50,569 nucleotides of DNA from Candidatus Iainarchaeum sp. (GCA_012799645.1 JAAZKV010000018.1:107519-158087), one strand, 5' to 3'. Numbered from the stretch's first letter, positions 21,632-25,334 are shown. The notes: generated by a model from the sequence alone, not told the origin. Numbers and translations: made by a program.

Positions 21632-22567
21632 ATGGAAAACAAAATGCAGGATAATCAAAACAATAATTTTTTTGAAAAAAATAAAAACGAACAAGCACAT
21701 TCTTTTGAAAAAAGTTCTGAAGAAAAAGTATTGAATAGTGAATTTGAAAATGCATTAAAAGAACTTAGACAAAAATTAATTATTGAAGGGTATTCTGACC
21801 GAACAATTAAAATGTACACTTTATACAATCAAGAAATTTTGTATTCAATAAATAAACCAATCAAAGAAATTACTTCAAAAGATTTGATGGGTTATTTGGC
21901 TGATAAGAAAGAGAAAGGGTGTGAAAATAGTACTCTTGCTTTAATTCACTCTGGTGGAGAGTATTTTTTTAAAAAATATTTAAAAATGAATATTTTGGAT
22001 GAAATAAAAATTCCAAAAAAAGCAAAAACTTTGCCAAAAATTTTGACAAGAGAAGAAATTAAAGAATTATTTAAAGCGACAAAATTTGGGAGAAACAGAT
22101 TGATGTTGCAATTTATGTACGGATCAGGGTGCAGAGTTTCTGAAGTAGTGAAATTAAAAGTAAGTGATATTAATTTCAAGGAAAGAACTGCAATTATTAG
22201 AGGAGGAAAAGGAAACAAGGATCGAATGATTGTACTATCAAAGGAGTGGTTGAAGTATTTAAAAAAATATTTGGATAAAAAGAAAATAAAAACAGAAAAT
22301 GTTTTTACAAAAAAAAATGGAAAAAATATTAGCACTGATACGGTTCAAAGAATAGTTAAAAAAGCAGCGATCGCGGCAAAAATACCAAAACGAGTTACTC
22401 CGCACTGTTTAAGGCATAGTTATGCAACACACTTACTAGAATCAGGAACAAATATACGATACATACAATCATTGCTAGGACACAGCAATCTTAACACCAC
22501 TCAAATCTACACCAATGTAGCGAGTGAGCAATTAAAAAAAGTGGAAAGTCCACTTGACAAACTATAA
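21632..22567 (+). CDS. xerA: Tyrosine recombinase XerA
   Basis: N-terminal GYSDRTIKMY; catalytic R (GCRVSE), K (GKGNKDR), HCLRHSYATH, LGH, IY; C-terminal SPLDKL. Confidence 0.9.
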   Translation: MENKMQDNQNNNFFEKNKNEQAHSFEKSSEEKVLNSEFENALKELRQKLIIEGYSDRTIKMYTLYNQEILYSINKPIKEITSKDLMGYLADKKEKGCENSTLALIHSGGEYFFKKYLKMNILDEIKIPKKAKTLPKILTREEIKELFKATKFGRNRLMLQFMYGSGCRVSEVVKLKVSDINFKERTAIIRGGKGNKDRMIVLSKEWLKYLKKYLDKKKIKTENVFTKKNGKNISTDTVQRIVKKAAIAAKIPKRVTPHCLRHSYATHLLESGTNIRYIQSLLGHSNLNTTQIYTNVASEQLKKVESPLDKL

Positions 22568-22882
22568 CCCCTAACAACCCCTAACAACACCCAACAACAA
22601 TACAATATTCCTCCTCCCCCCTCTGCCCCCATAGTTCCATTAAAAAAAAGAAAAAATTAACACTAATTAAATACAATTAACAAAAAAAACACAAATTTTG
22701 CACAAAAATCACTAAAAACACCATTTAATTTATTATGTTTAATTATGTATAATTTGTGATTTTTTGGCCACTAATTAGTGAATAAAATCTAAATCAATTT
22801 TAATTGATTTTTTTGCTTTTATAAACAAGAAGATTTAAATATAGGGTTGCCATTACTATGTTATTCAAAAGGAGGAAGAGTT

Positions 22883-23209
22883 ATGAGCGTAAGAATTTCA
22901 AAATTGTTCGGCATGGATGTGTATGATTCAGAGGCAGGGTACAAGGGAAAGGTTTATGATTTAATAATTAACCTTGAAAAAGGAAAAATTGAAACTATCA
23001 CCACTGAACCTTTAAAAGTTAAAACAAAATCTGATGCTAAAAAAATTCTTATGGAGAAAAGTATTCCTTACAGAAACGTTAGATCTGCTAAAGATATTAT
23101 AATTGTTTCAAGTAGAGCAATTGATCCAGTTGAAGAAACTCCAAAAGAAGAACCTGAAGAAAGTAGATACTCTTCAGCATACAACAAATACAGATATGGA
23201 AGAAGGTAA
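22883..23209 (+). CDS. PRC-barrel domain protein (CdpB-like)
   Basis: LFGMDVYDSEAGYKGKVYDLIIN..IPYRNVRSAKDIIIV; GGAGG SD. Confidence 0.88.
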   Translation: MSVRISKLFGMDVYDSEAGYKGKVYDLIINLEKGKIETITTEPLKVKTKSDAKKILMEKSIPYRNVRSAKDIIIVSSRAIDPVEETPKEEPEESRYSSAYNKYRYGRR

Positions 23210-23280
23210 AAAAAATATTTTTTATACAAATTGTTGGACATTTTTTTGCCCAACAATTTACCTAATTTTAATTAAAATTA

Positions 23281-23640
23281 TATAAAAAATTATTTAATAA
23301 AAAAAATTATTTGATTAATTAATTAATATTTTTTAGTAATTTTCAATAACTACTTTTTACCTATTATTAAATTAATTCAATAATCATAATTTTTCAATTG
23401 TTATGATTTTTTAATTATTACAAATTTTTAATTATTACAATTTTTTTCATTTTTATTTAATAAAGTAGAAATTTTGTTTTCTATTTTGTTTTTCAATTTG
23501 ATTTAAATTCAATTAACTTAAATAAATTTTAATTTAAAATAAATTTTAGTTTAATTAATTTTATTTGAATTCAAAAATAGATTTATAAAAATATATAACT
23601 TTTATGTATATATATAATACATAAAAGAATTTTTTGAATT
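23281..23640. other. Extremely AT-rich, A/T-balanced intergenic region (candidate DNA-unwinding element)
   Basis: Hand count about 33 G+C in 360 nt; direct repeat TTTTTAATTATTACAA at 23408 and 23425. Confidence 0.55.
23599..23627. promoter_or_regulatory. Perfect 11-bp inverted repeat with 7-bp spacer
   Basis: CTTTTATGTAT atatata ATACATAAAAG. Confidence 0.7.
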
Positions 23641-23671
23641 TTTTAAAAGCTTATTAATGGAAGTGTGGGGT

Positions 23672-24253
23672 ATGAGTGTTAGGGGTTATTTTATTCAATA
23701 CCGATTTATTTTGCCTGATTCAATTAAACACTCTTCTTACACTTATCAAAAGCTTTTCAGGGCAATTTATGGGTACACCCAAGCGGTTCATAAAGGATCA
23801 GGAAAAAATTACCAATACCACCGCCAAGGTATTCTTTCAAATTATCCCTTTATTCGTCCAGGAAAAAATTGTGTAATAATTCCCTCCGTTGCATTCCAAC
23901 CTTTACAAGAATTTTTCAAAACCGGTCACAACCCCACTCACAATTGGGAAACCAAAGGGGAATGGAAATGCACTTATTTTTTGAATGAAAAGGATCTCAC
24001 CGAAGCGGAAGTGATTAAATCATTAAATAATTTAATTTCAAGAAAGTTTATTGAAGGAGTAGAGGGCCTTGCTTTGCTTCAAAATGAAATGAAAAGAGCA
24101 TTATCAACACAATTGGATCAAAATTATGTTACAAGATTGGTTAATGAAGCTCAAAAAATAGTTGATTTAGAATGGTTCAAACAAGTATATTCCCAATCAC
24201 CAGAACTTAATGATTTTTACGAAAATTACAAAAAATTGAAAGGAATACAATAA
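23672..24253 (+). CDS. Hypothetical protein, possible Cas2/VapD-like ferredoxin fold
   Basis: YFIQY..YQKLFRAIYGY..YQYHRQGIL..CVIIP..LQEFFK; fold assignment is inference. Confidence 0.7.
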   Translation: MSVRGYFIQYRFILPDSIKHSSYTYQKLFRAIYGYTQAVHKGSGKNYQYHRQGILSNYPFIRPGKNCVIIPSVAFQPLQEFFKTGHNPTHNWETKGEWKCTYFLNEKDLTEAEVIKSLNNLISRKFIEGVEGLALLQNEMKRALSTQLDQNYVTRLVNEAQKIVDLEWFKQVYSQSPELNDFYENYKKLKGIQ

Positions 24254-24400
24254 ATTTAACCCACTAAATCCTACTTAAATTGCGCTTTTAATGCAATATT
24301 TTGTATTTTTACAAAATCCTAAATGATACAAAATAGTGTCCAAGAAATTGAGTTATTGTTGCGGTGTTGTTCATTTTCAGGATTGCTTTAAATAGTTTTT

Positions 24401-24829
24401 TTATTGATTTACGGCTTGTTTTAGCTCTATTTCTTGAGTTTCTTCCTCTTCTTCCTCTATTTTGATTAATAAGTCTTTTTTGCGCCATTTTCTCTTTCCT
24501 CCCACATTGGTGCTTTCAATTAAACCTATGTCTACAAGAGTTTTTAGATAGGGGTAAAGACTTCGTTCATTTTTGTAATCTATTTGAAATAACTCAAAAA
24601 TTCTTCTTCTTATTTCATCCATTGTCACCCATTCATCAAACCTTATTACGCTGGATAGGTGGGATGCTTGTGTGTTATCATTAAATTTTAATATGTCCCA
24701 AACTGATTTTATGCTCACTTTTTTGGGTTTTGAAGTTTCTTGTGTATATATTGGCTCTTTTGGTTTATTTTCAATTTTTTCTATTTTTTTGCCAAATATT
24801 TTTTTAAAAAAATCTATTATTTTCATCAT
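24401..24829 (-). CDS. Winged helix-turn-helix protein with N-terminal amphipathic helix
   Basis: MMKIIDFFKKIFGKK; VTMDEIRRRIFELF..SLYPYLKTLVDIGLIES..GGKRKWR; acidic tail. Confidence 0.8.
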   Translation of the reverse strand: MMKIIDFFKKIFGKKIEKIENKPKEPIYTQETSKPKKVSIKSVWDILKFNDNTQASHLSSVIRFDEWVTMDEIRRRIFELFQIDYKNERSLYPYLKTLVDIGLIESTNVGGKRKWRKKDLLIKIEEEEEETQEIELKQAVNQ

Positions 24830-24842
24830 TAATATAATGATG

Positions 24843-24942
24843 GTAATTACTTATAAACCTTACTGTAATGATGTGTATTTATTGTAATTACGCTTGTGAA
24901 TGCACGTAATTACTCATTATGAATGTAATTACTCGTAATTAC
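24843..24942. promoter_or_regulatory. Array of GTAATTAC palindromes (5 perfect, 1 degenerate)
   Basis: Copies at 24843, (24865 GTAATGAT), 24884, 24906, 24925, 24935. Confidence 0.85.
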
Positions 24943-25259
24943 CAAAAAATGTTGATTTTTGTGTTTTAGATAGTTGTTTTTGATATTTTCTCAATGTGTG
25001 TCATAAATTTATTCAAAGTGATGGTTCAATTTTGGTTTAATTGTGGGGGGGGGCAAATATTCACAATTATAGTTGTAATGTGATGGTTGATTTTTGACAA
25101 TATTTTTCATTTTATTTGGTCGTGTATTTATTTGGTGATTTGGAAGTGTTCTTTTTTTCGAGATTTTTTTTCCCTCTTTATTTTTGTTGGTTTGTAACTT
25201 CAAAAAACAATTCTTATTTTTAAGTCATTTGACGAATTTTTTTAAAACAATTAGTGGAA

Positions 25260-25334
25260 TAGCGGGGAGTGGATTTGAACCACCGACCTTCGGGTTATGA
25301 GCCCGACGGGCACTCCAGGCTGCCCTACCCCGCT
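25260..25334 (-). tRNA. tRNA-iMet (CAT), initiator
   Basis: AGCGGGG...TCGGG-CTCATAA-CCCGA...GTTCAAATC..CCCCGCTA; A1-U72 pair and three G-C pairs in the anticodon stem. Confidence 0.95.

Follow-up and report, generated by a model that had tools for sequence, protein, structure and literature searches.

The strand composition of the chromosome switches just downstream of xerA, the gene of an archaeal Xer-type tyrosine recombinase, in a 50,569-nucleotide stretch of Candidatus Iainarchaeum sp. (GCA_012799645.1, JAAZKV010000018.1:107519-158087), here called the window. On computational evidence we consider, with a probability of roughly 0.6, that the chromosome of this small DPANN archaeon has a replication origin at the switch, situated beside xerA and distant from any orc1/cdc6 initiator gene. 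The origin would probably be the dominant one, and comparison of sequences suggests that the locus has most likely been kept at xerA across a whole order of archaea. An earlier note, made from the sequence of the window alone, had proposed that the place was either oriC or ter. The replichore-type boundary that it described, with no orc1 nearby, held up on analysis, and the choice between the two is resolved towards oriC by origin-type polarity in three related genomes (G020, G018 and G034) and by gene orientation in the first of them.

Coordinates follow the numbering of the window unless they carry a contig prefix; the window corresponds to C2:107,519-158,087, the final 50.6 kb of the 158-kb contig C2 in the genome under study (G000; 779 kb in 34 contigs, with a guanine-plus-cytosine (GC) content of roughly 30%). 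The relatives used for comparison belong to the same genus (G001, G008, G015 and G018), to another family (G020) and to a third family (G034). G020 is closed, in one contig of 839,632 bp; contig C1 of G018 is 985,290 bp long, and 400 kb were examined of a 1,241,428-bp contig of G034. Gene positions come from a crude caller of open reading frames (ORFs), with greedy choice by codon score, and not from curated annotation. The polarity index of genes is their third-position composition corrected for orientation.

A switch of strand composition beside xerA

The intergenic spacers left of the switch had been described as A/C-rich on the + strand and those to its right as T/G-rich, and this description is accurate for all 14 spacers listed, six on the left and eight on the right. 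On the + strand, the six left spacers have AT skews of +0.44 to +0.69 and values of (A+C-G-T)/length of +0.52 to +0.68, and the eight right spacers have AT skews of -0.49 to -0.75 and values of -0.44 to -0.69. This documents an unusually strong strand asymmetry, with spacer AT skews of about ±0.6; such values far exceed ordinary replication skews. The spacer polarity index averages -0.90 between 5,646 and 22,700 (n=10) as against +1.60 right of 22,700 (n=13; Mann-Whitney p=8e-5), and the orientation-corrected third-position index of the genes has a mean of -0.07 on the left (n=11) and of +0.88 on the right (n=23; p=7e-4). Right of the switch, third positions are T/G-rich in + strand genes (sense AT and GC skews at third positions, AT3 and GC3, of about -0.1 and about +0.3) and A/C-rich in - strand genes (sense AT3 +0.25 to +0.88, GC3 mostly negative).

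The switch falls inside the interval proposed for it: the cumulative non-coding keto skew of contig C2 is minimal at window position 22,723 and climbs steeply from there to the end of the contig. The minimum is contained in the junction of an A-tract with a T-tract (22,643-22,765), where an inverted repeat, I1 (22,644-22,685 and 22,724-22,765), mirrors the A-rich and T-rich halves. Homopolymer runs agree in part with the suggestion that C-runs lie to the left and G-runs to the right. The + strand has C-runs at 2,160, 10,981 and 22,616 and G-runs at 25,045, 32,499 and 34,060; the exception is a G-run of at least six at 10,454, on the 'C' side. The G9 run at 25,045-25,053 (+ strand) is flanked by two copies of GTGATGGTT (repeat D14).

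Polarity does not flip at many places genome-wide, since at least 85% of the strongly skewed items share a single sign in 10 of the 12 contigs of at least 20 kb. Contigs C2 (0.67) and C3 (0.65) are the only ones in this size class with mixed signs.

Replication-type polarity and the contribution of transcription

Transcription had been judged not to explain the switch, and the whole-genome analysis of 346 spacers bears this out. The keto skew of a spacer follows the orientation-corrected polarity of its neighbouring genes (coefficient 0.26, r=0.66), with an equal slope in tandem+, tandem- and mixed spacer classes, and gene orientation adds to it weakly (coefficient -0.07). The skew of convergent spacers equals that of tandem ones (mean |AT skew| 0.32, n=66).

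The opposing view would hold that replication is not involved, that sense strands are A/C-rich through expression-linked codon use and transcribed A-rich spacers, and that the switch is the border of gene blocks whose composition tracks the direction of operons. Several observations are in line with it: 64% of the genes of the genome under study lie on the A/C-rich strand; within the A/C-rich domain left of the switch, '++' and '-+' spacers have the strongest skew and '--' spacers have none; the T/G-rich block at C2:79-99 kb consists of one-directional PFOR and mevalonate-pathway genes; and in G018 one-directional blocks (300-340 kb and 408-439 kb) have A/C-rich sense third positions, contrary to the replichore trend. 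However, the T/G-richness right of the switch extends to + strand genes and '++' spacers, the orientation term is small genome-wide, and contigs with mixed gene orientation (C7, C28 and C15) hold one polarity. Moreover, the polarity extends to chromosome scale in G020 and in the right 525 kb of G018, where about half of the genes lie on each strand. We therefore regard this explanation as improbable.

In our view a second, sense-strand-linked and probably expression-linked effect nevertheless overlies the replication-type polarity and blurs the left replichore of the genome under study. One-directional blocks of conserved genes have A/C-rich sense third positions whatever the replichore, and in the genome under study their sense-strand spacers are A-rich too; this bias competes with the skew of replication type.

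Polarity at chromosome scale and distance to orc1

As stated earlier, the window contains no orc1/cdc6 gene. Two genes of the genome under study, and only these, score above the cut-off of TIGR02928: the nearer at C2:52,336-53,445, 77 kb away from the switch, and the other at C15:11,272-12,282.

The closed chromosome of G020 consists of two arms of opposite polarity, and both the corrected index and the cumulative keto skew switch at about 765-768 kb and about 355 kb. Its xerA gene, at 767,911-768,756, coincides with one of these two chromosome-wide skew extrema, and its orc1 homologues lie at 816,740 and at 16-1,077, that is, 49 and 72 kb from the locus. Along contig C1 of G018, genes and spacers are uniformly T/G-rich from xerA (461 kb) to the end, the spacers of the first 460 kb are A/C-rich on average, and the cumulative spacer skew is minimal at 460 kb; the orc1 homologues, at 387-388 kb and 581-582 kb, are 73 and 120 kb distant. 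G034 shows a local flip exactly at the xerA-linked box pair and gene cluster described below, with one orc1 homologue 138 kb away on its left and another 148 kb away on its right, and G001, G008 and G015 show a like local polarity change when normalized locally. Across the locus the polarity changes from C to G and from A to T, as it does at bacterial origins. In addition, genes are preferentially co-oriented with forks leaving the locus: G020 has 556 such genes out of 770 (p=7e-36), G018 503 out of 860 (p=7e-7).

Corrected skew thus places the divergence of forks 49-148 kb from any orc1, with whole-contig profiles in G020 and G018 and a local sign change only in G000 and G034. A complete Diapherotrite genome has been reported to show a bacterial-type cumulative GC skew and a predicted origin beside a cdc6 gene (PMC5905446). 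The position of our locus at the origin pole is compatible with this report, as the skew-predicted origin there adjoins cdc6 and the orc1 homologues here lie on the side of the locus.

Two inverted ORB-like boxes around an AT-rich core

The usual signature of origin recognition boxes (ORBs) had been thought to be lacking. This was not borne out: what had been noted as a C-run at 22,616 forms the G-string of an ORB-like box, one of an inverted pair that surrounds an AT-rich stretch. The two boxes follow the pattern TAATGGAA(G/C)T(G/A)TGGGG and lie at 22,627-22,642 and 23,655-23,670, their GGAA cores pointing inward and their G-strings outward. Box L, as an element of 22,610-22,642 on the - strand, reads TAATGGAACTATGGGGG followed by a further G-rich run; its 16-mer, TAATGGAACTATGGGG (- strand, 22,627-22,642), was recognized as a conserved element in an alignment of the xerA-downstream spacers of six genomes. 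Box R (23,655-23,670, + strand), TAATGGAAGTGTGGGG, has the opposite orientation to box L, from which it is separated by 1,012 nt.

Between the boxes lie a gene for a PRC-barrel domain protein (22,883-23,209, + strand; Pfam PF05239, 1.1e-08), whose place and orientation are unchanged in every relative examined, and a very AT-rich spacer (23,210-23,654), which is a candidate duplex-unwinding element (DUE). The GC content of this spacer is 0.11 over about 445-447 nt, it includes the second-lowest-GC 300-nt window of the genome (8.3%, at C2:130,784), and it matched no Rfam family.

The boxes are rare and conserved. The 16-mer pattern has two matches in the window as against 0.05 expected, and GGAA[GC]NNNGGGG has just two occurrences in the entire 779-kb genome and two in the whole of G020, always as this inverted pair. 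The pair was present at 9 of 12 same-genus loci (one copy at two, none at one) and at 5 of 9 loci of other families (one copy at three, none at one), and it is also present in G020 and G034. Relatives keep box L just downstream of xerA, and in the order as a whole box R is conserved immediately before the next gene. Thirty copies from 20 of 23 loci yield the consensus A.TA.TGGAAGTGTGGGG, which is partly imposed by the search pattern. A strict 13-mer gave 37 matches in 31 of the 81 genomes of the order (reversed control, 4), and all nine matches in the seven genomes, besides the one under study, with a known xerA position lie at most 1.4 kb from xerA.

The euryarchaeal ORB consensus is GTTCCAGTGGAAAC-AAA----GGGGG (PMC1868953). 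Compared by eye with this consensus and with the printed Pyrococcus ORB oligonucleotides (PMC1904270), the box shares AGTGGAA and a G-string but has no left dyad half and a shorter spacing.

A related pair is found upstream of orc1. The region C2:51,971-52,296 contains the inverted pair TTAGTGGAAGTTC...GAACTTCCATTAA (52,084 and 52,111), followed by an A-tract of about 160 nt, and the 14-nt core TTATTARTGGAAGT is common to box R and this pair. The orc1-upstream pair is a candidate second origin, and the shared core hints that Orc1 may read both sites. At this pair the spacer skew changes sign weakly, without a corresponding change in gene third positions. A search seeded from the pair, with 13-mer and 10-mer variants, found no copy in the region of the switch, and the short core alone, with 22 matches, is too common to be informative. 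As a separate observation, about 31 kb of the genome under study (C2:37,264-67,705) are inverted relative to G018 (C1:372,740-405,634), and this inversion, a single case, is centred within a few hundred bases of orc1 and its ORB-like pair. Symmetric inversions are typical around active origins.

The link with xerA: a possible terminus or invertible cassette

The gene xerA (21,632-22,567, + strand) is the last gene left of the switch. Its product matches the NCBIfam model NF040815, recomb_XerA_Arch, with 254.7 bits (cut-off 220) and Pfam Phage_integrase with 1.8e-46, and a homologue was found in 30 of the 31 relatives searched. In two of them (G026:C6:162,321-164,390 and G009:C67:481-2,580) the match is split: residues about 29-296 and 260-311 lie 1.2-1.9 kb apart in one frame of 710-745 aa, which looks like an intein or another insertion.

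A recombinase of this family adjacent to a skew inversion could also mean that the locus is a replication terminus with a Xer/dif module. Forks would then meet here, dif would sit next to xerA in the manner of XerS and XerH systems, and the leading strand of the lineage would be A+C-rich. Besides the adjacency itself, the local gene orientation is convergent and 282 of the 444 genes of the genome under study lie on the A/C-rich strand. One study further describes, in Lactococcus and Streptococcus, xerS adjoining dif at the terminus, and a predicted dif at the skew inversion of Methanosphaera stadtmanae (PMC2958812). The same study, however, describes dif as not next to xerA in Thermococcales (PMC2958812). 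For a terminus at the locus, 72% of the genes of the closed G020 chromosome would be head-on to replication, whereas genes in G020 (556/770) and G018 (503/860) diverge from it; in all three large relatives the two orc1 homologues are found on the side of the locus, within 6-14% of the chromosome's length from it, and not opposite. The conserved boxes are 0.6-1 kb apart and not palindromic, and no dif-like 11-6-11 palindrome was found at the locus or conserved among three genomes, a negative that is weak because the search was blind and the DNA is AT-rich. In that scan of G000, G018 and G020 the best cross-genome matches were of low complexity or lay in genes with unrelated flanks, at the level of chance. 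The one candidate dif that seemed suitably placed (G020:361,108, G018:5,244 and C27:31,917) was dropped because it is coding in all three genomes. The reading of xerA adjacency as a sign of the terminus found no support, and the blind search gave no 28-bp dif-like site. We consider a terminus at the locus quite unlikely.

The boxes might instead be recombination sites of the adjacent tyrosine recombinase, delimiting an invertible cassette with the PRC-barrel gene and a promoter, in which case the overlap with the skew switch would be incidental. A segment of roughly 1 kb, directly next to the tyrosine recombinase gene, is indeed bordered by inverted repeats of 16-20 nt, and XerA weakly matches models of tyrosine-type DNA invertases, below threshold (73.6 bits, cut-off 221). 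Yet the protein passes the XerA equivalog cut-off, and the PRC-barrel gene has a constant orientation relative to xerA at all 16 loci where both could be placed (6 + 9 + 1), although minority inverted forms would be missed because these loci are consensus assemblies. The same core occurs upstream of orc1, and a cassette would leave the chromosome-wide change of polarity unexplained. This makes it a very unlikely account.

Gene order across the switch

Misassembly and recent inversion, either of which would by the earlier note have refuted the boundary, are rejected, since four genomes of the same genus show collinear gene order there. In G018 and G008 collinearity covers the segment from 2.9 to 50.5 kb, which starts with the RecJ/GAN-like gene, includes xerA and extends as far as the window does. 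G001 is collinear as far as its contig reaches, to about 34.5 kb, and G015 from 11.1 kb on, the first five genes of the window being without a match in the 80 kb compared. At a larger scale, C2:68-158 kb matches G018:407-495 kb in one orientation, except for a local inversion at C2:73-78 kb and two single-gene exceptions.

Further afield, the cluster xerA, PRC-barrel gene, unknown gene, winged-helix gene, TFE gene and Trm56 gene is kept in eight of the nine other families sampled, and in G020 and G034. The sole deviating family is represented by a 4.9-kb contig of G024, which is without the unknown gene and Trm56 and has the winged-helix and TFE genes on the other side of xerA. An integrated mobile element, suggested by an integrase beside a tRNA gene, was considered and rejected: the recombinase is the single conserved XerA, and its neighbours are housekeeping genes in conserved order.

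The remaining possibility of this kind is the breakpoint of an old inversion or insertion that has left a block of opposite skew. The A/C-rich domain is indeed short (about 17-20 kb) with T/G-rich DNA on both sides, and a rearrangement lies nearby (C2:37.3-67.7 kb, inverted relative to G018). Both borders of the block and the gene order between them are, however, common to G001, G018 and G008, and the block carries housekeeping and not mobile genes. Protein identities of 35-92% to these relatives mean that silent sites are saturated and should have re-equilibrated, so the shared pattern is a present-day bias rather than the relic of an old inversion. We consider an old breakpoint very unlikely.

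Evidence at odds with an origin

Several findings weigh against an origin at the switch, and the first group concerns the left side in the genome under study. One long A/C-rich left replichore, as implied by the earlier note, was not recovered there: the domain measures about 17-20 kb, reaching left only to about window 2.7-5.7 kb, and the + strand is again T/G-rich at C2:58-113 kb. Within the domain, gene third positions are near neutral (the mean index of -0.07 for 11 genes), as are both '--' spacers (+0.09 and -0.04). The T/G-rich strand as defined by spacers carries only 162 of the 444 genes, so that a sense-strand A/C bias of expressed operons confounds the signal. The left edge of the domain lies in a divergent spacer (5,646-6,017) between the RecJ/GAN-like gene and the next gene, which contains a 12-nt periodic A/C-rich repeat (D10) with ...CTAACAAAA...; its part from 5,690 to 5,970 counts 160 A, 70 C, 9 G and 42 T in 281 nt. 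This junction is kept in G001, G018 and G008. The flip at 2.7-5.7 kb and the T/G-rich C2:58-113 kb may reflect a sense strand that is A/C-rich in connection with expression; alternatively, there may be a second origin at orc1 (C2:52.1 kb), in which case forks would meet near C2:113 kb. Genes and spacers both change polarity once more at about C2:19.8-20.8 kb, where A/C-richness gives way to T/G-richness or neutrality; this change may be a rearrangement breakpoint, since its flanks map to scattered places in G018.

The second group concerns the relatives. In G034 the skew is weak over the 400 kb examined and a second sign change lies near the left orc1. In G020 the minimum of the raw GC skew and the turn in gene orientation are nearer orc1, at about 800-820 kb, and the 49-kb stretch between xerA and orc1 has 27 of its 44 genes on the - strand, yet the composition of the right arm.

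The third group concerns the locus itself. The initiator gene is not adjacent to it. Of the mini-ORB dyad the box has only one half, the left one being absent, and 4 nt separate GGAA from the G-string instead of 9-10 nt. Box R, which abuts a start codon, could be a promoter or 5'-untranslated-region element.

Other genes and features of the window

Box R is followed by a conserved gene of unknown family (23,672-24,253, + strand; 193 aa from the second ATG). Among its 454 homologues none has a Pfam domain or an informative name. The AlphaFold model (pLDDT 89.5) has a ferredoxin-like N-terminal half and a helical C-terminal half, with no significant fold match in Foldseek (best E 0.06) or VIA (Z at most 7.5, for the common ferredoxin-like arrangement). 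The next gene (24,401-24,829, - strand) is predicted to encode a small winged-helix DNA-binding protein of 142 aa with 290 homologues, all unnamed. The core of its model has a pLDDT above 90, and its Foldseek matches are generic winged-helix regulators (Fur, PerR, BlaI, PadR and TubR; best E 1.5e-3). Searches of Pfam, NCBIfam and PDB sequences gave nothing specific for either protein.

Upstream of the winged-helix gene lie five GTAATTAC palindromes (24,843-24,942), the only matches in the window (0.91 expected; at least five in 0 of 100 shuffles) and 5 of the 17 copies in the genome under study. Clusters at the corresponding place are the sole ones in G020 (9 of 28 copies) and in G018, and such clusters recur in other families. 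The palindromes may be the operator of the winged-helix protein or a further element of the origin.

To the right follow a tRNA-Met (CAT) gene (25,259-25,335, - strand) and the genes of TFE-alpha and aTrm56 (25,508-26,700, - strand; Pfam PF02002, 5.1e-15, and PF01994, 7.3e-42), which are the first genes of the strongly T/G-rich right domain and belong to the conserved cluster. Nearby genes are housekeeping genes, and a signal recognition particle RNA of archaeal type, encoded at 33,076-33,348, marks the genome as archaeal; homologues of two of its proteins come from sources named Diapherotrites or 'ainarchaeum' (DPANN). Three tRNA genes (Lys, Lys and Phe) are followed by a 740-nt T-rich stretch (27,400-28,140) without a convincing ORF. 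Its TTTCTTTGCTGC-like repeat units also compose a 111-aa ORF (32,616-32,951, - strand), which would encode Lys/Ala-rich low-complexity peptides on the - strand.

To the left of xerA, at a distance of 1-3 kb, 19,554-20,652 encodes a small PolB-exonuclease-like protein (sub-threshold Pfam matches) and a 112-aa RPA/SSB-like OB-fold protein, and replication genes are therefore clustered near the candidate origin. The RecJ/GAN(Cdc45)-like DHH protein (2,907-5,645, - strand), carries the domains DHH, DHH-CID and DHHA1; an intein that contains a LAGLIDADG endonuclease domain splits it. Relatives may be without this intein, as tblastn covers only about half of the protein there. A giant ORF of about 2,702 aa on the - strand has its N-terminus at 2,319 and runs on to C2:101,729.

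A model of the proposed origin and comparison with known systems

We propose that the two inverted ORB-like boxes flank the PRC-barrel gene and the 11%-GC spacer, and that this spacer would serve as the unwinding element. Orc1/Cdc6, encoded 77 kb away, would bind the boxes in trans and load MCM, and forks would depart in both directions. The leading strand would turn G+T-rich, as it does in bacteria and in other archaea with skew, and forks leaving the locus would thereby make the + strand T/G-rich to the right and A/C-rich to the left.

A possible, though doubtful, variant is that the main origin of the order is specified or co-specified not by Orc1 but by its neighbours: the winged-helix protein with the GTAATTAC iterons, the 193-aa protein and/or the PRC-barrel protein. 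The link with xerA would then be functional, for example through origin-proximal dimer resolution, and the arrangement would parallel WhiP at Sulfolobus oriC3.

If the origin is where we propose, Orc1 would act in trans over a long distance, or some other factor would take part. Archaeal origins are usually sought in the neighbourhood of orc1/cdc6; tools that work in this way would misplace oriC in this group, and raw GC skew would do so slightly too. A concrete 16-nt element and three small conserved proteins are now testable in vitro for these uncultivated DPANN archaea. The open-access literature that we searched yielded no description of a xerA-linked or orc1-distal origin in these archaea.

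Among known systems, the XerS/difSL and XerH/difH modules of bacteria, with the recombinase gene next to dif at the terminus, resemble the locus in that one Xer-type recombinase gene coincides exactly with a skew inversion of the whole chromosome. They differ in that polarity, gene co-orientation and nearness of orc1 here point to the origin pole, and in that no dif-like 28-mer was found here by the blind search.

Sulfolobus oriC3, with whiP, is similar in having no adjacent orc1 and a small winged-helix gene beside it (PMC4010727); its counterpart here would be the 142-aa winged-helix gene with the unique GTAATTAC cluster. The 142-aa fold, however, matches only generic winged helices, and oriC3 is reported to be without ORBs, whereas the boxes here are ORB-like (PMC4010727).

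The closest parallel in layout is the replicator of the oriC1 type (Sulfolobus oriC1, Pyrococcus oriC and Haloferax oriC1). Adjacency to orc1/cdc6 is given as the rule for archaeal origins in reviews (PMC4010727), and inverted ORBs around a DUE as the canonical layout of oriC1 (PMC4010727, PMC12141716). The candidate origin departs from this type in having no adjacent orc1/cdc6, the nearest being 49-148 kb away in the four genomes examined, in a box without the left mini-ORB dyad half and with the G-string 4 nt, not 9-10 nt, from GGAA, and in the PRC-barrel protein gene between the boxes. It shares with oriC1 an AT-rich core between inverted polar boxes in which AGTGGAA is joined by a G-string, a position at a skew inversion with the polarity of an origin, and replication genes within 20 kb, here RecJ/GAN-like, RPA-like OB and PolB-exo-like.

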